Origin: Myxococcota bacterium
Lineage (GTDB): Bacteria; Myxococcota_A; UBA9160; SMWR01
Reading direction: 5' to 3'
DNA length: 64,000 nt
Assembly: GCA_036560145.1 (NCBI GenBank)
Contig: DATBRV010000009.1
Coordinates: 16,189 to 80,188 of the forward strand
Below, piece by piece: positions 4,581 to 61,149 of this stretch. Position numbers and translations under genes: made by a program. Positions within the stretch are counted from its first letter, which is position 1. Every line of letters starts with the position of its first letter. The notes below the pieces were generated by a model that was given only the letters and a program-made list of their open reading frames with translations, did no database searches and was not told the origin of the DNA.

Positions 4581-5615
4581 GTGTCGCGATCGCTCGAGAT
4601 GACGCTCGCCGCCGTCCTCGTGCTCACCGGATGCGACCGGCTGATCGACCGCCAGATCGAGCGCGGCCTCACGCGCGCCGACGCGAGCGTGCTGAGCTCG
4701 CCGGATCTCCAGGTGGTGCTCTGCGGCACGGGCTCGCCGCTGCCCGACGCGACGCGGGCGGGGCCCTGCACCGCGGTGATCGCGGGCGGGGTCTTCCTGC
4801 TGGTCGACGTCGGCCCCGGCTCCTGGGAGCGGGTGGATCTCGAGAACCTTCCGATCGCCGAGCTGGACGGCGTGCTGCTCACGCACTTCCACTCCGATCA
4901 CATCGGCGACCTCGGCGAGGCGATCACGCAGAGCTGGATCGCGGGGCGGACGCAGCCGCTCGACGTCTACGGTCCGCCGGGGGTCGCCCGGATCCTGGCC
5001 GGGCTGCGCGAGGTCTACGCCTTCGACGTGGAGTACCGCGTCGCCCACCACGGACAGGCCTGGATGCCGCGCGAGGCCGGATCCGCCGTGGCGCACGAGA
5101 TCGCCCTCCCGTCGGAGGGCTCCTCGGACGCGGTGACCGTGCTCGAGCGGGACGGCCTGCGCGTCAGCGCGTTCCGGGTCGATCACACTCCGGTGTCTCC
5201 CGCGGTCGGCTATCGCTTCGACTGGCGAGGGCGCACGCTGGTGATCTCGGGCGATACCGGCCGGAGCGCGAGCCTGGTGGCGAACGCGCGCGGCGCCGAC
5301 CTGCTCGTGCACGAGGCGCTCCAGCCGAAGCTGACCGGGCGCGCGTCGGACGTCGCGCGCCGGCTCGGGCGGGAGCGGATGGCGAAGCTCGCCGGCGACG
5401 TCGCGAGCTACCACACCAGCCCGCGCGACGCGGCGCAGGCGGCCCGCGAGGCGGGGGTGAAGCAGCTGGTCCTCACCCACCTGGTGCCGGGTCCGGAGGG
5501 ACCGCTCGCCGCGCGGCTCTTCCTGGACGGGGCCGGGGAGGCCTTCGAGGGCGAGATCACGCTGGGCGAAGACGGCATGCGCTTCGCCCTGCCGCCGGAG
5601 GCGGGGCTGGATTGA
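4581..5615 (+). CDS. MBL-fold metallo-hydrolase (RNase Z-like), probable lipoprotein
   Basis: Contains the LLTHFHSDHIGDL metal motif. There is a lipobox-like VLTGC near the N-terminus, and an alternative ATG start at 4599. Confidence 0.8.
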   Translation: MSRSLEMTLAAVLVLTGCDRLIDRQIERGLTRADASVLSSPDLQVVLCGTGSPLPDATRAGPCTAVIAGGVFLLVDVGPGSWERVDLENLPIAELDGVLLTHFHSDHIGDLGEAITQSWIAGRTQPLDVYGPPGVARILAGLREVYAFDVEYRVAHHGQAWMPREAGSAVAHEIALPSEGSSDAVTVLERDGLRVSAFRVDHTPVSPAVGYRFDWRGRTLVISGDTGRSASLVANARGADLLVHEALQPKLTGRASDVARRLGRERMAKLAGDVASYHTSPRDAAQAAREAGVKQLVLTHLVPGPEGPLAARLFLDGAGEAFEGEITLGEDGMRFALPPEAGLD

Positions 5616-6357: not shown

Positions 6358-7360
6358 AGCGACGCTCGCAGGAGACCGGATCCGGATCGGCATCCGGCCG
6401 GTGCTGATCGGCGTGGCCGCCCTCGCGGTGGCGCTGATCGCGACCTGGTGGTTCGTCGCGCTGCGCGGCCGCGAGAGCACCGACGACGCCTTCGTCGAAG
6501 GGCATCTGGTCTTCCTCTCGTCCCGCGTCTCGGGCCACGTGCTCGAGGTGCTGGTCGGCGAGAACGAACGGGTCCGCGAGAACCAGCCGCTGGTGCGGCT
6601 CGACCCCGCCGACTTCGAGGCTCGGGTAGCGCACGCGCGGGCGGACCTGGACGCCGCGCGCAATCGCATGTCGCAGGCGAGCGCCGCCGCCGAAGCCGCC
6701 GCCGCGCAGGGACGCGCCGCGGCCGCGCGCCTGCGCCACACCGAGCAGGAGCTGGTGCGCGCCCGCGAGCTGGTCGGCAAGCACGCGGCGGCGCCGACCG
6801 CGCTGGACACCGCGCTCGCCGAGCGCGACGCCGCCGCCGCGGAGCTGCGCGCGGCCGAGCAGCGCGAGCAGGCCGAGCGCGCCGCGCTCGTGAACGAGGC
6901 CCCCGTGCGGCAGTCCGAGGCGGCCCTGCGCGAAGCCGAGCTCGCGCTCGCGTACACCGTGGTGGCGGCGCCGTTCGACGGGATCGTCGGCAAGAAGGGC
7001 GTCGAGACCGGGGCCAACGTCGCCGCCGGGCAGCCCTTGTTTGCGCTGGCGGCCGCCTCCGGCAACTGGGTGATCGCGAACTTCAAGGAGACCCAGATCG
7101 GACGCATCCGGCCGGGCGACCGCGCCGAGATCAGCGTGGACGCCTTCCCGGGGCGCAGCTGGCGCGGTCACGTGGAATCCATCTCGCCGGCGACGGGGGC
7201 CAAGTACGCGCTGCTCCCGCCCGACAACGCCACCGGGAACTTCACCAAGGTCGTGCAGCGCGTGCCCGTCAAGATCGCCATCGACGGCGTCGACGCGGAC
7301 GGCGCGGCGGACGCGCTCTCCGTCGGCCTCTCGGTCAACGTCGATGTCCGCGTCCGCTGA
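6350..7360 (+). CDS. emrA: HlyD/EmrA family efflux membrane-fusion protein
   Basis: An N-terminal TM helix is followed by DDAFVEGHLVFLSSRVSGHV, a coiled-coil region, and then the lipoyl/beta-barrel motifs YTVVAAPFDGIVG and NFTKVVQRVPVKI. Confidence 0.85.
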   Translation: MAEATLAGDRIRIGIRPVLIGVAALAVALIATWWFVALRGRESTDDAFVEGHLVFLSSRVSGHVLEVLVGENERVRENQPLVRLDPADFEARVAHARADLDAARNRMSQASAAAEAAAAQGRAAAARLRHTEQELVRARELVGKHAAAPTALDTALAERDAAAAELRAAEQREQAERAALVNEAPVRQSEAALREAELALAYTVVAAPFDGIVGKKGVETGANVAAGQPLFALAAASGNWVIANFKETQIGRIRPGDRAEISVDAFPGRSWRGHVESISPATGAKYALLPPDNATGNFTKVVQRVPVKIAIDGVDADGAADALSVGLSVNVDVRVR

Positions 7361-8936
7361 GCCCCTGACCGGGGCCCGGAGCGCAGCCGCCGACCCCCCC
7401 TCGCGCCTCTCGCTCGCCCAGCGCCTGATGCTGGTCGGCGTGATGCTGGCGACGGTCCTCGAAATCCTCGACACCTCGATCGTGAACGTGGCGCTCCCGA
7501 GCATGATGGGAAACCTGGGCGCAACCGTCGACGAGATCTCCTGGGTCGTCACCAGCTACATCATCGCCAACGTGATCGTGATCCCGATGACGAGCTGGCT
7601 CGCCGGGCGCTTCGGTCGGCGTCGATACTTCGTGACGTCGATCGCCATCTTCACGGCGGCGTCGTTCCTGTGCGGCCTCGCCAGCTCGCTTCCCGAGCTG
7701 GTGCTGTTCCGCGTGATCCAGGGCCTGGGCGGCGGCGCGCTGCTCTCGATGGCGCAGTCGATCATGATGGAGACCTTCCCGCCGCAGCGGCAGGGCACCG
7801 GCCAGGCCATCTTCGGGATGGGCGCGGCGCTCGGCCCGAGCCTGGGGCCGACGCTGGGCGGCTGGATCACCAACCAGTGGTCGTGGCCCTGGATCTTCTA
7901 CGTCAACGTCCCGCTCGGAATCGTCTCCGGCCTGCTCTGCTGGAACTACCTGCACGAGCCGCCGGCGCCCAGCGTGCGGCGCACGCAGGGCGTCGACTGG
8001 GCGGGGATCGTGCTGCTGGTGGTGGGCGTGGGGGCGCTCCAGACCGTGATCGAGCGCGGCAACCGCCTCGACTGGTTCGACAGCCGCCTGATCACGACCT
8101 TCGCGGCGTTGGCCGCCAGCTCGCTCGCGCTCTTCATCTGGCACGAGCTGCGGGTCGCGCATCCGATCGTGGATCTGCGCGTGCTGCGCCACCGCGCGCT
8201 CGCGGTGGGCTGCGTCTACGGCGCGCTGGTCGGCGTCGGCCTCTACGGCAGCGTCTTCCTGTTCCCGCTCTTCACGCAGCAGGTGCTGCACTGGAATTCC
8301 TGGCAGTCGGGGCTCGGGATCGCGCCGTCCGCGCTGATGACGGCCATCACCATGATGCTGGTAGGCAGGCTCGTCTGGCGGATCGGTCCGGCGCCGCTCT
8401 TCGCGGTCGGCGTCGTGATCTTCGTCCCGACGCTGTACGCGATGAGCCATTGGACGCTCCAGAGCAGCCGCCTGGATCTGTTCTGGCCGCAGATCGGGCG
8501 CGGGATCGCGATGGGATTCCTGTTCGTGCCCCTCTCGATGTCGGCGCTGCGCGCGCTGCCCCCGTCCGACATGCTCCAGGGCGCGGGGCTGTTCAACCTG
8601 TTCCGCCAGACGGGCGGAAGCATCGGCATCGCGGTGCTCGCGACGCTGATCGATCACCGCAGCGTCTTGCATCATGCGTATCTCTCGGAGAGCGTCTCGC
8701 CGTTCTCGGCGGCGACGCAGGAACGGCTGGCGGCGCTCGCCTCGGGCTTTGCTGCGCGCGGCCTGGACGCGACCCGCGCGCTCGATGCGGCGCGGCACGC
8801 GCTCGACGGAAGCGTCGCGGCCCAGTCCGCGGTGCTCGCCTTCCGAGACTGCTATCTGGTGATCCTGGTGCTCTTCGTGCTGCTCTCGCCGCTGATCCCG
8901 CTGATGCGAAGGCCGAACATTCCCGCCCGGCCTTAG
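7344..8936 (+). CDS. emrB: DHA2-family MFS drug efflux transporter (EmrB/QacA, 14 TM)
   Basis: The N-terminal region LDTSIVNVALPSMMGNLGATVDEISWVVTSY and the 530-aa length are typical of EmrB. Confidence 0.9.
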   Translation: MSASAEPLTGARSAAADPPSRLSLAQRLMLVGVMLATVLEILDTSIVNVALPSMMGNLGATVDEISWVVTSYIIANVIVIPMTSWLAGRFGRRRYFVTSIAIFTAASFLCGLASSLPELVLFRVIQGLGGGALLSMAQSIMMETFPPQRQGTGQAIFGMGAALGPSLGPTLGGWITNQWSWPWIFYVNVPLGIVSGLLCWNYLHEPPAPSVRRTQGVDWAGIVLLVVGVGALQTVIERGNRLDWFDSRLITTFAALAASSLALFIWHELRVAHPIVDLRVLRHRALAVGCVYGALVGVGLYGSVFLFPLFTQQVLHWNSWQSGLGIAPSALMTAITMMLVGRLVWRIGPAPLFAVGVVIFVPTLYAMSHWTLQSSRLDLFWPQIGRGIAMGFLFVPLSMSALRALPPSDMLQGAGLFNLFRQTGGSIGIAVLATLIDHRSVLHHAYLSESVSPFSAATQERLAALASGFAARGLDATRALDAARHALDGSVAAQSAVLAFRDCYLVILVLFVLLSPLIPLMRRPNIPARP

Positions 8937-9069
8937 TGAACTTCGCTCGCCTTCGGCTCGCTGCGCGCTTGGCTTGCCTGAGTGAACTGCGCTCGCCTTT
9001 GGCTCGCTGCGCGCTTCGCTTGCCTGAGTGAACTGCGCTCGCCTTCGGCTCGCTGCGCGCTTGGCTTGC
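8936..9069 (+). repeat. Tandem array (3 copies, 46-bp period) of the dispersed intergenic repeat
   Basis: GTGAAC occurs at 8936, 8982 and 9028. The unit is GTGAACT(T/G)CGCTCGCCTT(C/T)GGCTCGCTGCGCGCTT(G/C)GCTTGCCTGA. The array fills the whole gap between the convergent stops of emrB and the PLD gene. Confidence 0.9.
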
Positions 9070-10472
9070 TAGACGCCGTACTCGACGGGGTCGACCGCGT
9101 AGGCGAGGCCCGCGAGCGGCTCCCAGCAGACGCGGCGATCGGCGTTGCTGCGGGCGATCTGGTGGAAGGCGCGCAGGGCGCCGCGGCCGTCGAGCTCGCG
9201 CGTATCGAGGCCGAGGTGCTCGAGCAGCAGCTCCTGCCGCAGCGCGCGCACGCTCTCCGGGTGCCAGAAGGAGGCGTTCAGCTCGGTGTCCTGGTGGAAG
9301 GAGCGCTCGGCGACGTTGGTCGAGCCGATCGTGCACCAGGCATCGTCGACCAGCGCGAGCTTGGAGTGCACGTAGACCTCGTCGTAGCGGCCGTCTGCAT
9401 GGCTGGCGGCGATCGCCGCGAGCGTGAAGTTCTCGTGCCGGCCGAGCTGGGCGAGCTTGTCGAAGAAGAACGCGGCCCGCGGCTCCTTGCGCGCCTCCAC
9501 GAACGCCGGGTGCGCGTTGCCGGGCACCAGGAAGACCACCTCGACGCCGCGCCGCAGCGCGGCCTCCAGCGCGTCCACCACCGCCGGCGATCCGATCGCC
9601 TGGTTCTCGAGATAGAGCGAGCTGCGCGCCGCCGCGATCGCCGCCAGGTACTGCTCGAGCACGCTGGCCTCTCCGCCCGCGATCGCGAAGGGCTTCGCCC
9701 CCGGCGCGGGGGTCGCGTCCGCGTAGCGGCCGGCGAGCACGGTCCGCGTGAGCTGCACCGGAACGGGGCCGGCGGGCCTGGACAACAGCGCCGGAAACGC
9801 CAGCGAGTCCGCGCTCCGCGGATCCGGCCAGACGCCGTCCGCCTCGGCGCGGTCGCTCGCCTCGTTCCAGCGCTGCGCGAAGTTGTGATGCACGTCGCTC
9901 GCCGCGGGCCCCCGCAGCTCGAGGTAGACGTCGTGGATCTGCGGCGATCCCCGCACGGCGTGCCCGGCCGGCGCGATCGAGGGCGCGTCGAGGTTGATGC
10001 CGCCGACGAAGGCGACTTCTTCGGGCTCACCGGCGTCCACGATCCAGCTTTTTTGATGCTGGCAGAAGCCGTCCGGCAGGCGATCCCAGCGCGCGCGGAA
10101 ACGGGCCTCCCGATCGCGCAGCCAGGCGAGATCGGCGGCGTTGCCCTCGAAGTGCTCCGAGTCGGGCTCGGCCTCGCGCAGGCGCGGCTCGCGCCAGAAG
10201 AGCGCGCGCACGTCGAGACCGCGGGCGGCCGCGCGCTCCAGCAGGTCGAACACGGTCCCGTGTCCGTCGGGAAGGCGCGCTTCGCGGTCGACGTACGCGA
10301 TCGTCACCCAGACGCGGCGGCGCGCCGCGGCCACCGCCTCCCCGATCCGGCGGAAGGCGGGCTCCCCGTCGACCAGCGGGCGGACGAAGTTGCCGGGCCG
10401 CAGCGGATAGCTGGCGCTCGCGACGCTGGGAACCCGCGCGACCTCGATCTCGATCCCACCGGCCCGACTCAT
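9069..10472 (-). CDS. Phospholipase D / cardiolipin-synthase-like protein (two HKD motifs)
   Basis: The ORF was trimmed to the ATG at 10470-10472 (MSRAGGIEIE...). The HKD motifs are HQKSWIVD and HSKLALVDD. Its ATG overlaps the stop of ltaE in an ATGA. Confidence 0.85.
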   Translation of the reverse strand: MSRAGGIEIEVARVPSVASASYPLRPGNFVRPLVDGEPAFRRIGEAVAAARRRVWVTIAYVDREARLPDGHGTVFDLLERAAARGLDVRALFWREPRLREAEPDSEHFEGNAADLAWLRDREARFRARWDRLPDGFCQHQKSWIVDAGEPEEVAFVGGINLDAPSIAPAGHAVRGSPQIHDVYLELRGPAASDVHHNFAQRWNEASDRAEADGVWPDPRSADSLAFPALLSRPAGPVPVQLTRTVLAGRYADATPAPGAKPFAIAGGEASVLEQYLAAIAAARSSLYLENQAIGSPAVVDALEAALRRGVEVVFLVPGNAHPAFVEARKEPRAAFFFDKLAQLGRHENFTLAAIAASHADGRYDEVYVHSKLALVDDAWCTIGSTNVAERSFHQDTELNASFWHPESVRALRQELLLEHLGLDTRELDGRGALRAFHQIARSNADRRVCWEPLAGLAYAVDPVEYGV

Positions 10473-12924: not shown

Positions 12925-12944
12925 ATCAGCCGGACCGGGCCTGG

Positions 12945-13016
12945 GTGAACTTCGCTCGCCTGCGGCCGGCCTGAGTGGACTCCGCTCGCCTGCGGCTCGC
13001 TGCGCGCTTCGCTTGC
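12945..13016 (+). repeat. Dispersed intergenic repeat, 0.5 + 1 copies, composite form
   Basis: GTGAACTTCGCTCGCCTGCGGCCGGCC is followed by TGAGTGGACTCCGCTCGCCTGCGGCTCGCTGCGCGCTTCGCTTGC. A GC hairpin module extends to about 13045. The locus at 61150 has the same architecture. Confidence 0.85.
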
Positions 13017-13050
13017 GCGCGCGGGCTGCGCCCGCTTGCGGCGCGTGTCG

Positions 13051-13866
13051 CTACCCGTGCTCCAATAGAAACGGCTGGACGGCGGCGAGGAACGCCTCCG
13101 GCTGCTCCAGGTGCAGATTGTGGCCGGCCGCCTCGATCAGCGAGGTCCGCGCCCCCGGGATCTCGGCCGCGAAGGCGGCGGCTCCCTCGGCCGAGAGGAG
13201 CGGGCTCTCGGCCCCGCGCAGGATCAGCGTCGGGCAGCGGATCCCGCCGAGCGCGACGCGCTCGCTGGGGGGCAGCCCGAACCAGCGCGGATCGAACTTG
13301 AAGCCGAAGCGGCCGTCGGGGTCCCGGGCGACGGAGTGCGCGGCGATGCTCTCGCGCAGCGATTCGCTCGCGTGCGGCGCCGGCGGCAGGAAGCGGTAGC
13401 GCGCGATGGCGTCCTCCCGCGTGCGATACGTCCGACGCGCGGCGAGGGCGAGCCGCATCGCGCGGCGTTCCCGCGACGGCGCGCCGCGCACGACCTCGAT
13501 CGCGACGAGGGCGCGCACCTGGTTCTTCCGAGCCGCGTGATCCAGCGCGATGTGCCCGCCCATCGAGTGCCCCATCAGGGCGGGCTCGCGCGCGCCCAGG
13601 TGCTGGAGCAGCGCCTCGAGGTCGCGGGCGAAGGCGCCGACCTCCAGCGAGGCGGGATGGTCCGAGTCGCCATGGCCGCGAAAATCGAGCGCCACCACGT
13701 GGAAGCGATTGGCGAAGGCGGGCGCCAGGTGGTCCCACCAGTGCGCGTTCGCCCCGCCCCCGTGCAGCAGCACCAGCGGACGTCGCGACGCGTCGCCGCG
13801 GTGAAGCGCGTGAAGGAAGACGCCGGCCAGCGACGGCGTCGTGAAGCGTTCCGAGCGCGCGGTCAC
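13051..13866 (-). CDS. Alpha/beta hydrolase
   Basis: Contains LVLLHGGGANAHWW, RGHGDSD and the nucleophile elbow GHSMGG. Confidence 0.8.
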   Translation of the reverse strand: MTARSERFTTPSLAGVFLHALHRGDASRRPLVLLHGGGANAHWWDHLAPAFANRFHVVALDFRGHGDSDHPASLEVGAFARDLEALLQHLGAREPALMGHSMGGHIALDHAARKNQVRALVAIEVVRGAPSRERRAMRLALAARRTYRTREDAIARYRFLPPAPHASESLRESIAAHSVARDPDGRFGFKFDPRWFGLPPSERVALGGIRCPTLILRGAESPLLSAEGAAAFAAEIPGARTSLIEAAGHNLHLEQPEAFLAAVQPFLLEHG

Positions 13867-13914
13867 GGGGCGCGCAGCATACCCGCGGGCGGCGGCGTGT
13901 GCGAATGCCCCCCG

Positions 13915-13938
13915 ATTTCGGCCTCCCCGGGCCGAAAT
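13915..13938. promoter_or_regulatory. Perfect 9-bp inverted repeat (ATTTCGGCC-6 nt-GGCCGAAAT) in a divergent promoter region
   Basis: Read directly from the sequence. It lies between the hydrolase start (13866) and the histone-like gene. Confidence 0.4.
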
Positions 13939-13951
13939 GGCGCAGAATCCT

Positions 13952-13981
13952 TTGCATCCCCCTCGGAGGTGCGCCTATCAT
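13952..13981 (+). promoter_or_regulatory. Candidate sigma70-type promoter for the histone-fold gene
   Basis: TTGCAT (13952-13957), an 18-nt spacer, then TATCAT (13976-13981). Such hexamers are rare in this GC-rich context. Confidence 0.3.
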
Positions 13982-14084
13982 CCGCCCCGTCCGAACCATG
14001 GCGTATTCCGCGACATGGGGGTTTCCGCCGCCGTCGGCCGGTGTCTCCGGACGATGCGGCGTGTAGGGAGAGGAGAAACGGATC

Positions 14085-14291
14085 ATGGCAGCGAAGAAGT
14101 CGGCTCCGAAGAAGAAGGCGACCGGGGATCTCATCATCTCGAAGTCCCGCACCAAGGCCGCCGCCAAGAAGTGCAACGTGGGCAGCGAGTTCTACGGTGC
14201 GCTCGACCAGGCCGTACGCGGTCTGATCGCCGCGGCCGAGGGCCGCGCCGTCGGGAACAAGCGAAAGACGCTGAAGGCGGTCGATCTCTAG
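14085..14291 (+). CDS. Small histone-fold DNA-binding protein (DUF1931 / bacterial histone HBb-like) with a Lys-rich N-terminal tail
   Basis: 68 aa: MAAKKSAPKKKATGDLIISKSRTKAAAKKCNVGSEFYGALDQAVRGLIAAAEGRAVGNKRKTLKAVDL. The pattern matches remembered DUF1931/Bd0055-type sequences. A strong SD (GGAGAGGAGAA) precedes it and a terminator follows. Confidence 0.7.
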   Translation: MAAKKSAPKKKATGDLIISKSRTKAAAKKCNVGSEFYGALDQAVRGLIAAAEGRAVGNKRKTLKAVDL

Positions 14292-14313
14292 TCTCCAGCG
14301 CGTCGACGCAGTT

Positions 14314-14362
14314 TTCGCCCGTAGCGGGCGAACGGGCCCACCGGCGAGCCGCCGGTGGGCCC
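14314..14362. terminator. Two adjacent GC hairpins between convergent genes (bidirectional terminator candidate)
   Basis: TTCGCCC-GTAGC-GGGCGAA (14314-14332) and GGGCCCACCGGC-GAGC-GCCGGTGGGCCC (14334-14362), followed by CGTCGTTTCCGTT. Confidence 0.6.
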
Positions 14363-14378
14363 CGTCGTTTCCGTTCCG

Positions 14379-16007
14379 TCACGATTCCAGCAGCGACAGC
14401 CGGAGGTGCGAGGGGCGCTCGCGATCGTGGAACACGGTCTGGCGCGCCGGCGCGATCTCGCTCTCCGCGGCCGCGCCAGGCTCCACTTCCGTGTGTGAGG
14501 GGCGGTCCCAGCGCGGGAAGGCCGACGACGAGACCCTGAGGCGCAGGCGGCCACCGGTCTCGAGGCGCGCGCAGGCGGCCCCGAGATCGAGCTCGAGCCG
14601 GCGCGTCTCGCCGGGCGCGCCGCGGCTGCGCAGTACGCCGTCGCACAGCGTCTGCTGCTTCCCGTCGGGGGCGAGCGCGACCAGCGTTGCCGTGAAGTCG
14701 GTGACGGCGGCGCTCGACTCCGCGAACAGCACCGCCCCCACCGGGCCGCCGATCAGGAGGGGCTCCGGAAGCGGCTCCGTCGTGTAGCAGAGCACGTCGT
14801 GGCGGCATTCCGTCGCAGGGTCGTCTGCGAGCGCGGGATCGCGCGGGTCGTAGCTGTAGCGATCGGCGGGCTCCTCGCCGGGCGGCGCTTCACGCAGCAG
14901 GGCGCCGTCGCCGGTTCGCCCGTTGGCGCGGCCGCCGCCGCGCAGGTGCAGCGCCAGCGAGCGGGCGTTCGGAAGCGGCCACGCGGATGCTTCGCGCCAG
15001 ACGGAAGCGCCGCGCATGAACACGCGCACGGGCGCGCGCGCCGCCGGCTCGCCGCGCAGACGGCGCGCCAGGAAGTCGAGGGCGGCGCGCAGGCTCTCGG
15101 CACCCGCCCGGCTGCGGGTGCGCCGCGCCTCGCGGCGGGGCGGCTGGCCTCCGGGCCAGGGTCCGATCACGAGCTCGGGCTCCGGTGCGCCGCGCCTTCG
15201 CGCCGCCTCGCGCAGCGCCGGGAGATCCGCGAGCTGCGCGGCGAGCGCCGGGTGACGCCAACCGGCGATCAGCAGCGTCGGCGGCGGCGCCTCGGGGAGC
15301 GCGGGGCTCCGCGCCTCCCAGTACGCGTCACGGGCCGGATGCTCGATCCATTCGCGAAACCAATCGACACGCTTCAGCGTCACCCGGTCGGCTTCCCGCA
15401 GCGGGCGATGGGAGAGCCCGCGTTCGAGGTCGAGCCGGCCCGGGTCCTCGGCCTCGCGCTCGCCGACCCCGACGCCCCAGCGCAGCGCCAGCTCGAGCGC
15501 GAGCGCTCCGCCCGGGCGCAGCCAGGCGAACGGATCGCGCGCGGCGAAGGCGGCCACCAGGGCGGCCACGGGCCGGGGGCTGCGGGAGAGCGCGGCCCAG
15601 GCCGCGAAGCCGGAGTAGCCCCAGCCGAGGAGGCCGAGGCGCCCGTCGAACCATTCCTGGCTCGCGATCCAGGCGATCGCGTCGCCGCCGTCCGCCGCCT
15701 CGTTCAGGAAGGGCGCGAAGCGGCCCTCCGAGGCGTGCCGGCCCCGGCACTCCTGGAGCACGACGGCAAAACCGGACTCGGCGATCAGGCGGCCGAGCGA
15801 CGCCGCGGCGTGTCCCGGCCGGTGCGACGGCTCGGAGGTGCGCATCAGCACCGCCGGCCAGGGCCGCGCGCCGTCCTGCGGGAGCAGGACCTGGGTCGCG
15901 AGCCGGACGCCGTCCGTGAGCGCCACCCATTCCAGCCGGCGCCGGACGGCGCAGCGCCGGGGGGGAAGCGAGAGCCAGCGCCGGGTCAGCGCGGCGCCGA
16001 GGTTCAC
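14379..16007 (-). CDS. CocE/NonD family hydrolase (X-Pro dipeptidyl-peptidase S15-like)
   Basis: Contains DGVRLATQVLLP, QECRGRHASEG and GWGYSGF. The C-terminal beta-sandwich region ends with HTEVEP...FHD. Confidence 0.8.
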   Translation of the reverse strand: MNLGAALTRRWLSLPPRRCAVRRRLEWVALTDGVRLATQVLLPQDGARPWPAVLMRTSEPSHRPGHAAASLGRLIAESGFAVVLQECRGRHASEGRFAPFLNEAADGGDAIAWIASQEWFDGRLGLLGWGYSGFAAWAALSRSPRPVAALVAAFAARDPFAWLRPGGALALELALRWGVGVGEREAEDPGRLDLERGLSHRPLREADRVTLKRVDWFREWIEHPARDAYWEARSPALPEAPPPTLLIAGWRHPALAAQLADLPALREAARRRGAPEPELVIGPWPGGQPPRREARRTRSRAGAESLRAALDFLARRLRGEPAARAPVRVFMRGASVWREASAWPLPNARSLALHLRGGGRANGRTGDGALLREAPPGEEPADRYSYDPRDPALADDPATECRHDVLCYTTEPLPEPLLIGGPVGAVLFAESSAAVTDFTATLVALAPDGKQQTLCDGVLRSRGAPGETRRLELDLGAACARLETGGRLRLRVSSSAFPRWDRPSHTEVEPGAAAESEIAPARQTVFHDRERPSHLRLSLLES

Positions 16008-26177: not shown

Positions 26178-28904
26178 ATGCAGCAAGACCCCGAAACCCC
26201 GTCGAACGGGTCTCCCCACAGCCGGCTCGAGGATCTCGTCGCGCGCGGCGTCGCCTGGATGGTCGGCGTCTCCTGCCGACACGCCTGGCTCGTCACGATC
26301 GCGGTGCTGGCCGCGACCGCCGGCATCCTGGTGTACGCGGGCCAGAACCTCGGCATCCACGGCGACACCGAATCGCTCTTCTCGCCCGACCTGCCGTTCA
26401 AGCAGCGCGAGCACCGCTACCTCGAGGTGTTCCCCGCCCAGAACGACAACCTGTTCATCGTCGTCGACGCCACCACCCCCGAGCGCGCCGGCGAGGCCGC
26501 GGCGGCCCTCGCGGCCCGCATGCAGGCGATGCCCGAGCGCTTCCACGACGTCTACCTCCCGGGCGGCGGCGAGTTCTTCGAGCGCCACGCCTTCCTCTAC
26601 CTGAAGACCGAGGAGCTCGAGAAGCTCGCGGACCAGCTCGCCGAGGTGCAGCCCTACATCGCCGAGCTGGCGCTCGACGGAAGCCTGCGCGGTCTCGCGT
26701 CCATGACCGCGCGCGGTGTCCGCGCGGTGCGGGATGGCGACATCGGCGGCGAGCGGCTGGCGTCGATCTTCCAGCACATGGACGAGGCGGTGCGCGCGCG
26801 CAGCGATGGCCGGCACTACGAGCTGTCGTGGGCCGAAGTGCTCGCGAGCGCGGACTTCCCGGGCGATCCGCGGCGGCGCTTCCTGATGGCGCAGCCCGTC
26901 CTCGATCGCAACGACCTTCAGCCCGGCAAGCGGGCGATCCTCGAGGTGCGCCGGGTGGCGGAGGAGCTGGGCCTGACACCGGGCAGCGGCGTCCAGGTCC
27001 GCATCACCGGCGACGTCGCGCTCTCCTACGAGGAGATGGAGGTCGTGCGCGGTCAGGCGGCCAGCTCCGCGATCGGATCGATCGTGCTGGTCGCCCTGCT
27101 TCTCGTGCACAGCCTGCGCTCCGTCCGGCTCTTCCTGGCGACGCTGCTCCTGCTGCTGGTCGGCCTGGTCTGGACCGCCGGGTTCGCGACCCTCTCGGTG
27201 GGGCGTCTCAACCTGATCTCCTCGTCGTTCGCCGTGATCTTCATCGGGCTCGGCGTCGACTTCGGCATCCATCTCTGTCTCCGCTACAACGAGCTGCTCT
27301 CGCAGGTCCGTTCCCACACGCATGCGATGCGCGGAGCCGCCTACGACGTCGGGACGTCGATCGTGCTGGGCGGAGCTACGACGGCGATCGGATTCCTGGC
27401 ATTCATCGGGACCGGCTTCGTCGGCGTCGCCGAGCTCGGCATCATCTCGGCGGGCGGCCTGGTGGTGAGCGTCTTCCTCACCTTCACGCTGCTGCCCGCG
27501 CTGATGAGTCTGCGGCCGCGGCCGGCGGACGCCGTCGACCGCTCGGAGGCTGGCTGGTCGGGGGCGCGCCTCTCCGCGCTGCCCATCCGCCACCCGCGCT
27601 TCGTGCGCACCGCCGCGCTCGCGTTAGGGGTCGGCTCCATCCTGCTGCTCCCGCTCGCGCGCTTCGACAACAACCCGCTCAACGTTCGCGATCCCTCGAG
27701 CGAATCCGTGCGCACCTTCAACGATCTGCTCGAGAAGGGCGGCACCTCGCCCTGGACGCTGGACGGCGTGGCGCCGGATCTGGCCACCGCGGAGGCGATC
27801 GCCCAGCGTGTGCGCGGCCTCGACGTGGTCGACCGCGTGGTGACCGTCGCCGACTACATCCCGTCGGACCAGGACGAGAAGCTCGACATCATCGGCGACG
27901 TCCGGCTCTTCATGGCGCCGACGCCCGGCCCCGGTGGCCTGCCCGAGCCCGCCACCCAACAGGAGCAGATCGACGCGCTGAAGCAGCTCGAGGCGGAGAT
28001 CGGCGCGCTGGTCGCCAGCGGCGCGCCGCCGGCGCTCGCGGCGCCCTCGCAGCGGCTCCACGAGAGCCTGGGCGCCTATCTCGCGAAGCTCGCGTCGGAC
28101 CAGCTGCCGGTCTCGTCCGTCGGGGATCTCGAGGCGAGCCTGATGGGCACGCTGCGCGAGCAGCTGCGCATCCTCGACGCCGCGCTCACGGCGGGGCACG
28201 TCACGCTCCAGAACCTTCCCGGCGCGCTGCGGGAGCGGATGATCACCGCGGACGGGCGCGTGCGCGTGCAGATCTTCCCCCGCTACGACATCGGGGACCG
28301 CAAGAACCTGGCCGCCTTCGTCGACCAGGTGCGCGAGGTGATGCCCGAGGTGGCCGGCAGCGCGGCCGAGGTGCTCGAATCGGGCCGCGCGGTGGTGCGC
28401 TCGCTCCAGCAGGCGCTGCTGGGAGCGGTGGTCGCGATCACGATCGTCCTGCTGCTCGTCTGGCGCCGGATCGACGACACCGCGCTGGTGCTGATCCCGC
28501 TCTTCCTGGCGGCCGCGCTGACGGTCGCGACCACGGTGCTCTTCGACATCCCGTTCAACTTCGCGGACGTGATCGTGCTGCCGCTGCTGCTCGGCATGGG
28601 CGTCGACAGCTGCGTCCACCTGATCCACCGCGCGCGCTTCCCGATCGCGCACGACCAGGGCATCCTGGGGACGAGCACGGCCAGGGCGGTCTTCTACAGC
28701 GCGCTCACCAGCATCTTCGGCTTCGGCACGATGGGCTTCGCGTCGCACGTGGGGCTGGCGACGCTCGGCCAGATGCTCACGCTCGGCGTCACCTACTCGA
28801 TGCTGTGCAACATGGTGGTGCTGCCGGCGCTGATCTCGCTGCGCAGCGAACGCCAGCGCAGGATCGCGGGGCCGAGCGCGCCGGCGCAGGCCGACGGCGC
28901 CTAG
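26178..28904 (+). CDS. hpnN: MMPL/RND-superfamily lipid transporter, HpnN-like
   Basis: 908 aa. The N-terminal region ESLFSPDLPFKQREHRYLEVFPAQNDNLFIVVDATTPE...FFERHAFLYL and its two 6-TM MMPL halves match remembered HpnN proteins. Confidence 0.8.
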   Translation: MQQDPETPSNGSPHSRLEDLVARGVAWMVGVSCRHAWLVTIAVLAATAGILVYAGQNLGIHGDTESLFSPDLPFKQREHRYLEVFPAQNDNLFIVVDATTPERAGEAAAALAARMQAMPERFHDVYLPGGGEFFERHAFLYLKTEELEKLADQLAEVQPYIAELALDGSLRGLASMTARGVRAVRDGDIGGERLASIFQHMDEAVRARSDGRHYELSWAEVLASADFPGDPRRRFLMAQPVLDRNDLQPGKRAILEVRRVAEELGLTPGSGVQVRITGDVALSYEEMEVVRGQAASSAIGSIVLVALLLVHSLRSVRLFLATLLLLLVGLVWTAGFATLSVGRLNLISSSFAVIFIGLGVDFGIHLCLRYNELLSQVRSHTHAMRGAAYDVGTSIVLGGATTAIGFLAFIGTGFVGVAELGIISAGGLVVSVFLTFTLLPALMSLRPRPADAVDRSEAGWSGARLSALPIRHPRFVRTAALALGVGSILLLPLARFDNNPLNVRDPSSESVRTFNDLLEKGGTSPWTLDGVAPDLATAEAIAQRVRGLDVVDRVVTVADYIPSDQDEKLDIIGDVRLFMAPTPGPGGLPEPATQQEQIDALKQLEAEIGALVASGAPPALAAPSQRLHESLGAYLAKLASDQLPVSSVGDLEASLMGTLREQLRILDAALTAGHVTLQNLPGALRERMITADGRVRVQIFPRYDIGDRKNLAAFVDQVREVMPEVAGSAAEVLESGRAVVRSLQQALLGAVVAITIVLLLVWRRIDDTALVLIPLFLAAALTVATTVLFDIPFNFADVIVLPLLLGMGVDSCVHLIHRARFPIAHDQGILGTSTARAVFYSALTSIFGFGTMGFASHVGLATLGQMLTLGVTYSMLCNMVVLPALISLRSERQRRIAGPSAPAQADGA

Positions 28905-28910
28905 CTCGAT

Positions 28911-28950
28911 GAGCTTCGCTCGCCTGCGGCTCGCTGCGCGCTTGGCTCGC
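28911..28950 (+). repeat. Dispersed intergenic repeat, single copy
   Basis: GAGCTTCGCTCGCCTGCGGCTCGCTGCGCGCTTGGCTCGC, between the convergent stops at 28902-28904 and 28957-28959. Confidence 0.8.
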
Positions 28951-28956: not shown

Positions 28957-29817
28957 CTAGCCCTCTCCCAGCACGAAGGCGGCAACGGCATCGCGGAAGC
29001 CGTCGGGATTGTCCGTCATCACCGAGTGCCCGGCGCGCGCCACCACCGCGAGCGAGCCCTTGGGCAGCACCTCGTGCGCCATCCGCTCCGCGACGTCCGC
29101 CGAGAGCACGTCCGAGGCCGCGCCGCGCACGACCAGCGTCGGACACGGGATCTTCGCCAGCGCCTCCCACTGGGCGCGCGTGAGGTCCTCCTCGGACGAG
29201 GTGCGCGCGGGCTGGCCGCGCGCGGCGCCGCGCAGCGCGGGATCCAGCTTGGGGGCGAAGCGCCCGTTCTCGAGCTTGCGCAGGCCGTGCCGCGCCATGC
29301 GCTGGAGCGCGTGCGGCTGCGCGGCCGGGTAGTTCAGCGAGAGCAACCGCGCGAACTCGTCCACCGATCCGAAGCTTGGCTCCCGGTTCGACTCGATCTC
29401 CATCTTGATCCGGGTGGTGCCGCGCGGGTCGAGCTCGGGCCCGATGTCGACCAGCACCAGCCCCGCCATGCGCTCAGGGTGGCGGCCGGCGAACAGCGTC
29501 GCGACGCGCCCGCCGAGCGAGTGGGCCACCAGCACCAGACGCTGGATCCCGAGCGCGTCGGTGACCGCTTCGACGTCGCGCACCAGGCTGTCGTGGTCGT
29601 AGCGGCCCTGCGCGTCCCAGGCCGAGTCGCCGTGTCCGCGGTGGTCGAGGGCGAGCGTGCGGTAGAAGGGCGCGACGGTGGGCGCGAAGTCGTCCCAGAT
29701 GTGGGCCTCGTTGCCGAAGCCGTGCAGCAGGAGCAGCGGGACGCCCTGCGCGCTCCATTCGAGCAGATGCAGGTCGATGCCCCCGTCGCCGCGCACGCGT
29801 TTCGAGACCGGCTGCAT
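28957..29817 (-). CDS. Alpha/beta hydrolase
   Basis: The ORF was trimmed to MQPVSKRVRG... Contains LLLLHGFGNEAHIW, RGHGDS and AHSLGG. Confidence 0.8.
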   Translation of the reverse strand: MQPVSKRVRGDGGIDLHLLEWSAQGVPLLLLHGFGNEAHIWDDFAPTVAPFYRTLALDHRGHGDSAWDAQGRYDHDSLVRDVEAVTDALGIQRLVLVAHSLGGRVATLFAGRHPERMAGLVLVDIGPELDPRGTTRIKMEIESNREPSFGSVDEFARLLSLNYPAAQPHALQRMARHGLRKLENGRFAPKLDPALRGAARGQPARTSSEEDLTRAQWEALAKIPCPTLVVRGAASDVLSADVAERMAHEVLPKGSLAVVARAGHSVMTDNPDGFRDAVAAFVLGEG

Positions 29818-34379: not shown

Positions 34380-34418
34380 CAAGCGAAGCGCGCAGCGAGC
34401 CGCAGGCGAGCGGAGTTC
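34379..34418 (-). repeat. Dispersed intergenic repeat, single copy, inverted orientation
   Basis: GCAAGCGAAGCGCGCAGCGAGCCGCAGGCGAGCGGAGTTC. It starts on the G of the aconitase TAG stop. Confidence 0.85.
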
Positions 34419-34456
34419 GGGTGGCGCGCGGCCGCCCGCGCGCCGGGACCCAATGG

Positions 34457-40607: not shown

Positions 40608-40848
40608 GCGTTCTCCTCTCGGGGGCGATGGCGCAGCGTAGCCGAGCGGGGCGCCGGGCGGCGCCGTTTGACCGGGCTGGCGGGATCGTCTAAGTTATCG
40701 GCTTCCCAGCGTTTCTGGCCGCCGCCCTCGCGAGAGCGATCCCCCGAAGCATCCGGCGGCTCCGAGCGGAGCCCTCGTACGGGCGGACGCGGCGCCGGGA
40801 AGTCGCTGCCAGGCCCCGCCGCCTCGGCGGCGCTGCGAGGTCGCTGTC

Positions 40849-41316
40849 ATGCTCGAAATGGAAGACGTCGAAGCGGGTGCCCACGTCACCCATCGCAACA
40901 CCGGATTGCGTTACGCCGTCGTCGACAAGGGCGAGGAGGAGGTGCTCCTCTCGCCGGAGTCCACGGATCTCCAGGACCTGGTGGTTCCCACCCGGCTGTT
41001 CCGCGAGGAGTTCGTGCTCTCGGATCGCTACAGCACGGGCCGCGGCCGCGCGCGCGGCGGTCGCCCGCGACGCCCGCCGGTGGCGCGCGCGCTCCCGAGC
41101 GGGCCGAAGGTGCAGGGCAAGATCAAGAAGCTGGTGCGCGAGCGGGGCTTCGGCTTCGTGCGCGGCGACGACGGCAAGGAGGTCTTCTTCCACCGTTCGG
41201 GCCTCGGCTCGACCGACTACGACGCCCTCTCCGAGGGCGACACGGTCGAGTACGTCGTGCAGGAGGGCCCGCGCGGGGCCCGCGCCGAGAACGTCCGCGC
41301 CATCAGCGAGGCGTAG
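40849..41316 (+). CDS. Cold-shock-domain protein with an N-terminal extension and an Arg/Gly-rich linker
   Basis: The C-terminus carries the CSD: GKIKKLVRERGFGFVRGDDGKEVFFHRSGL...GDTVEYVVQEGPRGARAENV. The N-terminal 60 or so aa are unassigned. The linker is GRGRARGGRPRRPP. Confidence 0.7.
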   Translation: MLEMEDVEAGAHVTHRNTGLRYAVVDKGEEEVLLSPESTDLQDLVVPTRLFREEFVLSDRYSTGRGRARGGRPRRPPVARALPSGPKVQGKIKKLVRERGFGFVRGDDGKEVFFHRSGLGSTDYDALSEGDTVEYVVQEGPRGARAENVRAISEA

Positions 41317-43010: not shown

Positions 43011-43073
43011 CAGCCGCCCGCAAGCGGGCGAAGCCCGCGCGCAGCGAGCCGAAGGCGAGCGGAGTTCACTCAG
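43011..43073 (-). repeat. Dispersed intergenic repeat, single copy with a hairpin module, inverted orientation
   Basis: ...CGCCCGCAAGCGGGCG...GCGCGCAGCGAGCCGAAGGCGAGCGGAGTTCACTCAG. Its terminal TCA supplies the MaoC stop codon. Confidence 0.8.
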
Positions 43074-44096: not shown

Positions 44097-44180
44097 CCGG
44101 GTGCAGGATATCGCGACTCCGGATCCCGGGCGTCGCGCGCCAGCGTATAATGCGGCGGAGCGCCCCGCGGCGCGTCCGGT

Positions 44181-44218
44181 GAGCCAGGAGCGCTGAGCCA
44201 GGAGCGCTGAGCCAGGAG
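44181..44218 (+). repeat. 14-bp tandem repeat (GAGCCAGGAGCGCT x 2.7) in a 5' leader
   Basis: Read directly from the sequence. Each unit contains AGGAG. It lies between TATAAT (44146-44151) and the ATG at 44225. Confidence 0.8.
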
Positions 44219-52536: not shown

Positions 52537-52556
52537 GCTGAGCAGGAGGAATTTCG

Positions 52557-61133: not shown

Positions 61134-61149
61134 CTCCGGCCCGGCCTGG

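Follow-up and report, generated by a model that had tools for sequence, protein, structure and literature searches.

Repeat units in the window

In the 64-kb stretch of DNA that we analyzed (the window), an MFS/EmrB-like transporter gene and a convergent PLD-family gene are separated by three tandem units of a short repeat (Table 1). An earlier reading of this DNA from its letters alone (the sequence-only reading) had proposed that the array spans the gap between the two stop codons, and it does; each stop codon also shares at least one base with the array. In assembly GCA_044449805.1, the head of unit 1 reads TGAGTGA, and the transporter gene ends one codon further on, at the TGA.

A profile search identified 11 full units and 2 half units (matched at 12941-12966 and 61146-61171) at 7 intergenic loci, and the next-best profile match had E = 0.14. 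With up to 3 mismatches, a 26-nt core occurs 11 times at the 7 loci, versus 0.00 times expected (100 shuffles). The head, GCCTGAGTGAACT, occurs 11 times in the window versus 1.0 expected. Tandem Repeats Finder reported a 46-bp period at 8930-9069 (3.0 copies, 93% matches) and at 52396-52538 (3.1 copies, 96% matches). The sequence-only reading had described an abundant repeat at 7 loci with 46-bp-period triplets on both strands; all of this held up, and its orientations were right at all 7 loci. The window loci are either singlets or direct tandems, and REPIN-type inverted pairs are not among them.

Table 1. Repeat features and overlapping stop codons, in positions of the window.
Feature	Position	Strand	Details
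Three-unit tandem array	8930-9069	+	Units 8930-8975, 8976-9021, 9022-9069; cores 8940-8968, 8986-9014, 9032-9060; each unit: 10-nt head (GCCTKAGTGA); 29-nt core carrying hairpin 1; hairpin 2 in minimal form, GCGCGC-TTG/TTC-GCTTGC
Stop TAG of MFS/EmrB-like transporter gene	8934-8936	+	Inside the head of unit 1
Stop TAG of convergent PLD-family gene	9069-9071	-	One-base overlap with the end of the last GCTTGC in the array
Half unit	12935-12968	+	Head and hairpin 1 only, CCGGGCCTGGGTGAACTTCGCTCGCCTGCGGCCG
Full unit	12969-13016	+	Minimal hairpin 2; core 12979-13007
Additional hairpin-2 module	13017-13039	+	Extended stem, GCGCGC-GGGC-TGC-GCCC-GCTTGC
Single unit	28903-28950	+	Degenerate head; core 28913-28941
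Single unit	34379-34426	-	Core 34388-34416
Single unit	43020-43079	-	11-nt hairpin-2 insert, gggc-TTC-gccc; core 43037-43065
Three-unit tandem array	52396-52538	-	Cores 52500-52528, 52454-52482, 52408-52436
Half unit	61140-61173	+	Head and hairpin 1 only
Full unit	61174-61221	+	Core 61184-61212; downstream of a TRAM/U5 RNA methyltransferase gene
Additional hairpin-2-like module	61222-61245	+	GCGCGCGGGCTCCGCCGCGCTTGC

Three of the loci (8930, 28903, and 34379) lie between convergent stop codons, as had been claimed. The unit at 28903 is flanked by the stop of an MMPL gene (28902-28904) and the stop of a convergent hydrolase gene (28957-28959). At 34379, the stop TAG of the plus-strand aconitase gene (34377-34379) overlaps the unit's tail (TAG-CAAGC). 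A MaoC-dehydratase gene ends at the first TGA (43070-43072) of the head of the unit at 43020. The full unit at 12969 is antisense to both of its neighbors (an amidase and an alpha/beta-hydrolase), and the array at 52396 is antisense to an AraC/DJ-1 regulator gene on one side and a DJ-1/PfpI gene on the other. The sequence-only reading placed every copy in intergenic DNA. All of them do lie between genes, but the AraC/DJ-1 gene (51388-52425) extends 30 nt into the array, and its stop TAG (52423-52425) is created by a base in a hairpin loop of the repeat (the A at position N of hairpin 1; see below). Finally, the composites at 61140-61237 and 12935-13032 are 93% identical, which implies that an entire composite was copied between loci 48 kb apart.

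Two small hairpins with a common loop code

Each unit is built from a head of about 10 nt that varies, a 29-nt core (ACTYCGCTCGCCTNCGGCTCGCTGCGCGC) that is invariant and holds hairpin 1, and hairpin 2. Units had been said to contain three GCTCGC motifs; in fact there are two, which begin 11 bp apart, and one GCTTGC. The core is mostly not self-complementary, a T-rich stretch lies upstream of it rather than 3' of the hairpins, and single units have no terminal inverted repeats. Subfamilies of heads cluster within genomes (permutation test, 0/2000).

Hairpin 1 is GCC-TNC-GGC: a 3-bp stem flanked by a 2x2 mismatch and then by two further pairs. At the middle pair, 174 copies have C-G and 15 have G-C, a compensatory swap; in 4 copies the pair is broken. 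The first loop position is almost always T (T12, 186/193 copies) and the third almost always C (C14, 184/193), while N13 takes all four bases. One copy turns both mismatches into pairs (GCGCGCC..GGCGCGC).

Hairpin 2 is GCGCGC, a stem of 0 to about 13 bp with a triloop, and GCTTGC. The sequence and length of the stem vary freely, but pairing is kept. There are 71 distinct inserts, mostly of odd length (3, 7, 9, 11, 13, or 15); 55 of 95 are perfectly symmetric, with 68% pairing versus 34% in shuffles. In a formal test, pairing was 97.6% versus 88.9%, and none of 500 shuffles reached the observed value. Covariation was 0.192 versus 0.054 (0/500 shuffles), and the test gave 27-48% with the partners slid. 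The loops are TNC in 87 of 102 cases and never GNA on the strand of the sequence-only reading, and the closing pair is C-G in 97 of 102.

Both loops have fixed first and third positions (T..C, or G..A on the opposite strand), a free middle position, and a C-G closure. Judging from sequence, both hairpins appear to be GNA mini-hairpins, a motif defined by C-G closure, G1, A3, and a free middle. Read on the purine-rich strand, hairpin 2 in its minimal form is GCGAAGC or GCGGAGC, and hairpin 1 is GCC-GNA-GGC. DNA mini-hairpins of the GNA/GCGAAGC type are ultra-stable (Tm of about 76 C), while hairpins with TTC loops are ordinary.

The sequence-only reading had described the repeat as not palindromic and without a clean hairpin. 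This is correct for the minimal units in the window but not for the family, which has two hairpins supported by covariation. The window units are the minimal-stem form of a two-hairpin element. Nearest-neighbor folding of the window units was unremarkable (z of about 0 to +1.6), and units and arrays folded as RNA or as DNA did no better than shuffles, except for one strand of one array. Because the stability of GNA mini-hairpins is missed by standard energy parameters, we consider thermodynamic folding to be uninformative here.

Spread and turnover of copies

The 29-nt core is present in at least 45 species-level Myxococcota-type metagenome-assembled genomes (MAGs). The family is natural, abundant, intergenic, REP/BIME-like, and genome-wide, as the sequence-only reading had suspected, and not confined to the window: at least 45 species-representative assemblies carry it. 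We fetched loci from other genomes by exact match to a 25-mer, and outside the window we counted roughly 1 additional cluster for every 22 kb. A Hamming-distance scan of the fetched loci (at most 6 mismatches) found 202 copies, and shuffles gave 0. A caveat is that exact matching builds in some of the core's invariance, but secondary copies within the fetched loci are likewise near-perfect in the core. A profile search showed no decayed relics of the repeat. Viral contigs gave a single match. Two MAGs have unusual copies. In CAZUYC alone, we found inverted REPIN-like doublets, and there the core lies inside long inverted-doublet elements of roughly 300 bp; in L087, one array with a 42-nt period lies inside a long ORF.

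As had been argued, the repeat is not an assembly artifact: several assemblies made independently contain the same loci. The family is restricted to a clade of Myxococcota that are uncultured and high in GC (soil myxobacteria). It is apparently new to description: the motif was absent from the literature that we searched, and the surveys of REP, RAYT, and HUH elements that we searched made no mention of Myxococcota.

Individual copies turn over quickly. We compared six orthologous sites between species, and none of the six retains a copy in the same orientation: four are filled in one species and empty in the other, and two have copies in opposite orientations. The species that differ by gain, loss, or re-orientation of copies share 75-81% nucleotide identity. 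The site of the unit at 43020, for example, is empty in a relative (L111). Among short-read assemblies of the same species, in which tandem repeats may collapse, the array at 52396-52538 has 2, 3, or 4 units and the array at 8930-9069 has 3 or 4. We found no target-site duplication or target motif at the copies. Stop codons of neighboring genes account for the TAG or CTAG triplets at the flanks (34% versus 7%). A CTAG target site was ruled out, as the flanking TAG/TGA triplets track the incoming genes.

Placement relative to genes

Gene context at the repeat loci was assigned with a local GC-position frame test. Almost all copies (195/202) lie outside candidate ORFs, and one of the 7 inside is a chance match, so this is not a repeat within coding sequence. 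Copies often abut stop codons or the 3' ends of tRNAs, and they sometimes supply the stop codon. Most are at the 3' ends of genes and not at promoters; divergent genes flank 16 of 108 clusters.

Orientation follows the local coding strand (41:21, p = 0.015; p = 0.004 in a second test), with the purine-rich strand preferentially on the mRNA-like strand. Beside tRNAs, the orientation is opposite to the bias beside protein-coding genes. The coding-strand bias could equally reflect a lagging-strand template or a function in mRNA. A GC-skew test of replication-strand bias gave a weak trend that was not significant (p = 0.15). This weak trend, and the mixed orientation of the loci within 64 kb (4 plus and 3 minus), argue against a strict lagging-strand mechanism.

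Scans for sigma-70 promoters and intrinsic terminators found nothing at the repeat loci, and a tRNA/tmRNA scan of the window found nothing. No part of the window matched Rfam at the gathering score, and three loci with long forms of hairpin 2 had no relevant Rfam match at E up to 1. A sigma-54 promoter in the GCTTGC tail was ruled out by eye, as there is no GG at the required spacing. No T-tract follows the hairpins, so the termination role that had been suggested is not supported in its classical form.

A mosaic element that may be copied by a trans-acting enzyme

We propose that the family is a mosaic, non-autonomous, REP/BIME-like repeat that is read as single-stranded DNA (ssDNA) by a putative trans-acting enzyme, with an overall probability of about 0.6. 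The more general part of this proposal, that this is a proliferating non-coding element of the REP/BIME kind, is quite likely. The specific HUH/ssDNA mechanism is tentative, and we would not give it even odds.

In the proposed mechanism, the folded molecule would be ssDNA of the purine-rich strand, on which both hairpins would become C(GNA)G mini-hairpins and hairpin 1 would gain a tandem G.A pair. A conserved, vertically inherited enzyme would make new copies by reading the core and the hairpins. The likeliest candidate is a single-strand HUH/Y1 transposase, of the RAYT or IS200/IS605 kind, that would work on DNA exposed at replication. (IS200/IS605 enzymes recognize ssDNA hairpins of the lagging-strand template.) Selection would leave copies chiefly at the 3' ends of genes, and arrays would expand or contract by slippage or unequal recombination. 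Effects on the host would be limited to the supply of stop codons and to stable hairpins at the ends of transcripts or genes. Conservation of the 29-nt core exceeds that of the neighboring genes even though the copies turn over, which implies a trans-acting partner. No transposase was found among the genes that are bracketed by inverted copies; by eye, from their translations, these genes look metabolic. A tblastn search of about 0.9 Mb of fragments with approximate Y1 transposase queries, a weak negative, had no matches.

A related idea is that the elements are a strand-specific ssDNA signal, made of two adjacent C(GNA)G mini-hairpins in a fixed 29-nt context, and that a conserved enzyme, inherited vertically within this Myxococcota clade, reads it. 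We consider this doubtful, but if true it would account for a core that does not differ among at least 45 species despite the turnover of copies. The enzyme could then be part of a new REPIN/RAYT-like partnership whose recognition code is not GTAG. More radically, a host ssDNA process (such as priming or a hairpin promoter, as in G4, ssiA, and N4) could be copied around the chromosome.

It is also possible, if rather unlikely, that the repeat is a cis-acting RNA element of the host in 3' UTRs or intercistronic regions. In the transcript, its hairpins would block 3' exonucleases, provide a processing site, or serve as a factor-dependent terminator. Selection would preserve every copy, and copies would spread by duplication or recombination without a dedicated mobilizing enzyme. 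Copies at the 3' ends of genes and tRNAs, the strong covariation of the stem, the purine-rich strand being mostly on the mRNA-like strand, and the lack of visible relics would all fit, and REPs have been proposed to terminate transcription or to stabilize mRNA in one account of them (PMC3733652). But 0/6 orthologous sites have a copy in the same orientation, and site-level selection leaves an identical 29-nt core amid this turnover unexplained. Both orientations are common, copies occur between divergent genes, and the orientation beside tRNAs is the reverse of that beside protein-coding genes. The absence of a 3' T-tract and of Rfam matches also counts against an RNA element, and the C-G-closed GNA loop is known for its exceptional stability in DNA.

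Another view is that the repeat provides double-stranded binding sites for a nucleoid-associated or regulatory protein that reads the three GCTYGC hexamers. The core is invariant across species, the first two hexamers start about one helical turn apart, and tandem arrays adjoin genes (one is directly upstream of the DJ-1/PfpI gene). However, the compensatory swap in hairpin 1 indicates base pairing and not base-specific contacts with a duplex, as does the free variation of stem sequence and length between the second and third hexamers. Given also the placement away from promoters and the fast turnover of individual sites, we consider this improbable.

Less probable still is a classical MITE, that is, a deletion derivative of an insertion sequence with a DDE transposase that moves by cut-and-paste via terminal inverted repeats. 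The long inverted doublets in CAZUYC resemble this, and CTAG or TA is frequent near the ends. But single units and arrays lack terminal inverted repeats, modules are found alone and in direct tandem, there is no target-site duplication, and the TAG/CTAG triplets belong to the neighbors' stop codons. Lastly, a repeat in a protein or peptide, a CRISPR-like array, or an assembly artifact is effectively ruled out for the window: no stop interrupts any of the three antisense frames and the array in L087 does lie in a long ORF, but the period of 46 nt is not divisible by 3, the units are contiguous without spacers, nearly all copies are outside candidate ORFs, and the loci recur in independent assemblies.

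Comparison with known systems

Like REP, BIME, and REPIN elements, the repeat is short, high-copy, extragenic, probably hairpin-forming, and mosaic, with modules that combine, duplicate, and invert. As in those families, most copies are found where neighboring genes converge or run in the same direction, related genomes differ in what they carry at a given intergenic site, and the sequence of the family is long-lived while its copies turn over. (REPIN/RAYT systems have been described as non-autonomous, vertically inherited, and long-lived.) There are also several differences. REP palindromes are described as having a conserved tetranucleotide tag, GTAG or CGTC, at one end (PMC3733652). In contrast, neither tag flanks either hairpin in our consensus, and GTAG appears only when the loop's N is A. 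A REP is one imperfect palindrome of 20-40 bp that can form a stem-loop, whereas this repeat has two small hairpins with GNA-type triloops, and most of its conserved 29-nt block lacks self-complementarity. Unlike REPINs, which replicate as two inverted REPs with a short spacer, the window units are not in inverted pairs. REPs flank a single-copy RAYT (Y1/HUH) gene in their genome; no RAYT gene was found with the repeat, either among the bracketed genes or by tblastn with approximate queries against about 0.9 Mb. And unlike in REP, BIME, or REPIN families, at least 45 species-level genomes share one unchanged core.

The repeat also resembles the ends of IS200/IS605 elements and of their miniature derivatives, which have subterminal imperfect hairpins read on ssDNA. 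It too has no inverted terminal repeats and no target duplication, and its orientation data are compatible with the link that these elements have to the lagging-strand template. But it has no associated TnpA or TnpB and no conserved target tetranucleotide, and its orientation is mixed within 64 kb. The loop code is the same as in the GCGAAGC/GNA mini-hairpins of phage G4-type origins, ssiA, and N4 early promoters. Those are single functional sites on phage or plasmid ssDNA, whereas this repeat is dispersed, with hundreds of copies expected.

MIRU-type VNTRs of Mycobacterium are high-GC, intergenic direct tandems of 40-100 bp that overlap stop codons and whose number of units differs from strain to strain, and our repeat shares these features. 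MIRUs are oriented with the operon and contain an in-frame small ORF that overlaps the flanking stop and start codons. The 46-nt unit, in contrast, is not a multiple of 3 and has no small coupling ORF. It is found in both orientations to genes, with 3 of the 7 window loci (including the array at 8930) between convergent genes; most loci are single-copy; and its hairpin modules covary. BOX elements of Streptococcus pneumoniae are modular and intergenic, with one tandem-variable module and no transposase of their own. All of this is true of our repeat as well, but it has no sequence relation to BOX, follows another module logic, and has a high-GC host, and what varies in it is the length of a stem.

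The tandem arrays are ready VNTR markers for typing strains in metagenomes. The elements break short-read assemblies, and they alter the last codons and stops of neighboring genes, which is relevant to annotation. The implied trans-acting partner can now be sought.

Overall, we regard the family as a cousin of the E. coli REP/BIME repeats and not as an element of a wholly new kind. It extends the REP-like class to the phylum Myxococcota (here from metagenome bins only), which was outside the surveys that we searched. Its architecture differs as well, with two GNA mini-hairpins side by side, a stem that can expand, and no GTAG tag.

Copies in the window and in other genomes

The sequence-only reading described an abundant repeat family at seven loci in the window (72% G+C). 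A search with a 26-nt core (up to 3 mismatches) gave 11 matches, with 0 expected, and all of them lie at those seven loci. The head motif was also found 11 times in the window, versus 1.0 expected. A profile made from many family copies identified 11 full units and two half units in the window; the next match has E = 0.14, so the window is without decayed relics. (The three GCTCGC motifs that had been read in each unit are actually two GCTCGC and one GCTTGC.)

The copies in the window are intergenic in general, as had been claimed, but one gene extends 30 nt into an array. Three loci do lie between convergent stops; of the others, two are antisense and two are sense to co-directional genes. 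The genes next to the repeats are unremarkable (MFS/EmrB-like transporter, PLD, amidase, alpha/beta-hydrolases, MMPL, aconitase, PAS histidine kinase, MaoC dehydratase, NAD synthase, AraC/DJ-1 regulator, DJ-1/PfpI, TRAM/U5 RNA methyltransferase, and DUF3604). A histone-fold protein had been proposed at 14085, but neither ORF 13841-14539 (+) nor ORF 14134-14808 (-) has a Pfam match at E ≤ 0.001.

Positions of the repeats and related features (window coordinates, or positions in fetched loci outside the window, L016 and so on)
Position	Feature	Observation
8930-9069 (+)	Array	46-bp period, x3.0 (Tandem Repeats Finder, window); 3 units, versus 4 in one same-species assembly; in GCA_044449805.1, the stop of the MFS gene is the following TGA instead of TAG (each inside the element's head)
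12935-13032 (+)	Half unit, full unit and extra hairpin 2	Recurs at 61140-61237 with 93% identity
12941-12966; 61146-61171	Half units	Head and first hairpin only (profile search)
28903 (+)	Repeat locus	
34379 (-)	Orthologous site	Opposite orientation in L105
41314-41319	Orthologous site, empty (~41316)	Convergent stops abut with a 0-nt spacer (CCCTAGCTACG): gene 40672-41316 (+; called as cold-shock-domain in the same species) and that of NAD synthase (-). Filled at L111:244, with a ~200-nt spacer
43020-43079 (-)	Orthologous site, filled	L111 empty, its gene ~5 codons longer; window gene stops at the element's head TGA
44180-44218	Perfect 14-nt tandem repeat TGAGCCAGGAGCGC, x2.8, 100% matches	Unrelated to the family; just upstream of ORFs starting at 44221/44225
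52396-52538 (-)	Array	46-bp period, x3.1 (Tandem Repeats Finder, window); 2, 3 or 4 units among same-species assemblies (A-B, A-B-B, A-A-B-B)
52423-52425	Stop codon (TAG) of the AraC/DJ-1 regulator gene	Formed by the rare hairpin-1 loop variant N=A, which is in all units of the array
L054 vs. L042	Orthologous site	Filled vs. empty
L019 vs. L016	Orthologous site	Filled vs. empty
L059 vs. L095	Orthologous site	Opposite orientation
L021:2990-3260, 6360-6600; L104:2740-3010, 5050-5320	~300-bp inverted doublets of the core, MAG CAZUYC01	Tails face each other; conserved G-rich/CCCGATTTT sequence outside the heads

An exact core 25-mer (with one N) matched at least 111 stretches from at least 45 species-representative assemblies. 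Among the matches listed, nearly all of these assemblies are high-GC MAGs of uncultured bacteria that carry a Myxococcota or Deltaproteobacteria label, and the few other taxon labels are probably wrong. This includes the "uncultured Spirochaetales" labels (CAZUYC01, CAYPSI01, CAZCTH01, CAYTJA01, CAZQYK01, CAZZFT01, and CAYWRY01): G+C is 71-74% in the three assemblies that we checked, and CAZUYC01 shares synteny with a MAG labelled Deltaproteobacteria (for example, L021 vs. L081, ~70% identity). The sole match in a viral collection is an exact core in a 51-kb IMG/VR contig (L122:7533-7557, IMGVR_UViG_3300045051_000371). It is intergenic, downstream of a 356-aa ORF, and the contig has 48% G+C, versus 67-74% at nine motif-bearing genomic loci that we checked.

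The window and 782 kb of fetched loci contain 202 copies with at most 6 mismatches (172 of them with at most 2), and shuffled sequence contains none. Besides the copies that led us to fetch these loci, there are ~35 further clusters, or roughly one per 22 kb. Just 7 of the 202 copies lie within a candidate ORF; one matches by chance, and most of the rest arise because the antisense strand has no stops and is read through. Thus, the family is neither confined to the window nor a protein repeat in conserved coding sequence. In a MAG labelled Candidatus Eisenbacteria (L087:697-851, VBPB01000035.1), four core units repeat in tandem every 42 nt (a multiple of 3) inside a ~2-kb open frame with a coding-like GC pattern, and the antisense strand repeats SFAQRAEGERRPAA. 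This may be an element taken into coding sequence, or a mis-binned contig.

Two hairpins with compensatory changes

With all copies anchored on the core, conservation stops abruptly. A variable, T-rich head of ~10 nt precedes the core, (A/G/T/C)CTY-CGCTCGCC-TNC-GGCTCGC-TGCGCGC, which is followed by an insert of 3 to ~40 nt and then by GCTTGC. The shortest insert (TTC, TCC, or TTG) gives the 46-nt unit of the window.

Hairpin 1 reads GCC-TNC-GGC. At its middle pair, 174 copies have C-G, 15 have G-C, and 4 have a broken pair. The G-C copies come from at least five MAGs, and some of them form tandems with standard copies. The first and third bases of the loop are fixed, and the middle base can be any of the four. 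Beyond a 2x2 mismatch (TC/TC), the arms form another two pairs, and one copy turns both mismatches into pairs.

Hairpin 2 is GCGCGC-[insert]-GCTTGC. Odd insert lengths dominate (3 nt in 54 copies, 7 in 10, 9 in 16, 11 in 18, 13 in 6, and 15 in 5) and even lengths are rare (4 nt in 1, 6 in 1, 10 in 4, and 12 in 1), as expected for a triloop on a symmetric stem. The 95 inserts of 5-45 nt include 71 different sequences, and 55 of the 95 have perfect Watson-Crick symmetry; 68% of positions pair, versus 34% in shuffles. We tested covariation formally in the fixed-length class with 11-nt inserts, using 500 shuffles. In this class, 97.6% of cells are paired (88.9% in shuffles) and the covariation score is 0.192 (0.054 in shuffles), and no shuffle reached either value. 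Pairing falls to 27-48% with slid partners, and four pairs show two-sided changes. Because the stems are compensatory and covarying, the earlier description of the repeat as not palindromic fits the window's minimal units, but not the family. These comparisons show that the element is non-coding and modular, with two structure-constrained hairpins.

Heads are more similar within genomes (0.355) than between them (0.316; no permutation of 2,000 reached the observed value), and recognisable head subfamilies are common to several MAGs. Other MAGs carry extra modules. In some genomes, conserved modules lie downstream of GCTTGC (L032, L037, L102, and L108; in CAVPRM01, L022, L025, L083, L099, and L110), including a third hairpin, GCGGCTTCTCGAGCCGC, and, in another MAG, CTCGCTCGGGRCGGCCCTCGCTC; these form a wider mosaic repertoire. 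The long inverted doublets of CAZUYC01 are REPIN- or MITE-like composites that are absent from the window. In this mosaic make-up, the family resembles BIMEs.

The folded strand

On the strand on which the unit was first written, the loop of hairpin 2 is TNC in 87 of 102 cleanly paired copies and GNA in none, and it is closed by C-G in 97. Hairpin 1 has the same loop and closure. It follows that each hairpin is a C(GNA)G triloop when read on the complementary, purine-rich strand, where the minimal hairpin 2 reads GCGAAGC or GCGGAGC and the mismatch of hairpin 1 becomes tandem G.A/A.G. According to the published literature, GCGAAGC and C-G-closed GNA loops form extraordinarily stable, nuclease-resistant DNA mini-hairpins (Tm ~76 C), while TTC-loop hairpins behave like ordinary DNA. 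Because of this difference, we infer from the sequences that the purine-rich strand is the one that folds, probably as DNA. Nearest-neighbour folding of the units gave z-scores near zero because standard energy parameters do not reproduce this stability, which comes from a sheared G-A pair.

Placement and turnover

Both neighbouring genes were called for 108 clusters. Next to co-directional genes, the element is antisense in 41 clusters and sense in 21 (p = 0.015); another 30 clusters lie between convergent genes and 16 (15%) between divergent ones. Orientation correlates with local coding-strand bias (p = 0.004) and shows a weak trend with GC skew (p = 0.15). The stops of incoming genes cluster in two places, -11 to -2 relative to the core and -5 to -2 relative to the tail, with a TAG|CAAGC junction at seven tails. 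We considered a target-site duplication or a terminal stop in the element itself, but a TAG accompanies 34% of the heads that have an incoming gene, against 7% of those that have none and 4% in background. Since TAG tracks incoming genes, these triplets are the neighbouring genes' stops. Among 20 tRNA genes in the sampled DNA, there are seven element-tRNA pairs at most 50 nt apart; in three MAGs, the core begins 11-12 nt past the tRNA's CCA end and the head adjoins the tRNA's 3' end.

At six orthologous sites that could be evaluated between species (70-81% nucleotide identity), no copy was kept in the same orientation. Four sites are filled in one species and empty in the other. At the other two, both species have a copy directly after the same stop codon, in opposite orientations.

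Independent same-species assemblies (NCBI GCA_044449805.1 and JGI metagenomes 33000351xx) are 99.4-99.9% identical to the window. Among them, both arrays vary in length and the single-copy loci are invariant. A caveat is that short-read collapse could distort the counts, but the unit patterns argue that the variation is real; 46-nt units that slip or exchange unequally would be its simplest cause. All units of the 52396 array carry the N=A variant that gives the stop codon at 52423-52425, which suggests that this variant was selected and then amplified. Also, a short-read contig with the MFS gene (L121, Logan SRR11672841_317917, 1750 nt) ends 20 nt past the stop, just inside the first unit, which suggests that arrays break short-read assemblies. 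Overall, the copies show an element that multiplies within genomes but turns over from species to species, sits preferentially at gene ends, and makes arrays that are unstable.

What maintains the core?

The puzzle is that a 29-nt core is invariant in at least 45 species, while single copies are short-lived and leave no relics. Site-by-site selection cannot explain this, so some family-level filter is needed. The best-known kind would be a trans-acting enzyme that copies only the elements it recognises, as in REPIN/RAYT systems, which the literature describes as non-autonomous, vertically inherited, and persisting for millions of years. We put the probability of a REP/BIME-like proliferating element at roughly 0.75.

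We are more tentative about the mechanism, and somewhat short of even odds. An HUH/Y1-type enzyme would recognise the element on single-stranded DNA, with the IS200/IS605 family as the precedent. Several observations point this way: the stems are free in sequence but the loops and the internal mismatch are fixed; there are no inverted termini; there is no target duplication; the mini-hairpins have a DNA-type signature; and the orientation bias favours the strand that, where genes are co-oriented, also serves as lagging-strand template. Against it, orientation is mixed within 64 kb and we found no tag or target motif at the element. We also found no such gene, which is a weak negative.

An RNA element of the host, acting at 3' ends, would account for where the copies lie, for the covarying stems, and for the coding-strand bias. 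We consider it unlikely, since it fits poorly with copies that turn over and occur in both orientations, with the clusters between divergent genes, with an orientation bias that is reversed at tRNAs, and with the DNA-type loops. The missing T-tract does not suit it either. Scans of the window's repeat loci found no hairpin-plus-T-tract terminator and no sigma-70-type promoter. A protein-binding site in duplex DNA is quite improbable: the invariant core and 11-bp phasing suit it, but the compensatory changes and the variable-length stem do not. A classical MITE with terminal inverted repeats is more improbable still, given the lack of a target-site duplication or inverted termini. A coding repeat (given how few copies lie in ORFs), a CRISPR, or an artefact is the least probable of all.

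Comparison with known systems

Neither the window nor three loci with a long hairpin 2 matched an Rfam family, our literature search found no paper containing the motif, and, as far as the literature was searchable, surveys of REPs, RAYTs, and HUH enzymes do not mention Myxococcota. An invariant core without a known partner is a real puzzle, and to a specialist the finding should be solid rather than revolutionary. The element works like REP/BIME/REPIN sequences, but it lacks their defining GTAG/CGTC tag and, in the window's genome, their inverted doublets. MIRUs combine VNTR behaviour and stop-codon overlap with an in-frame ORF logic; our element shares the first two but not the third. Finally, its hairpins match the GNA mini-hairpin motif of phage and plasmid single-strand origins and promoters.
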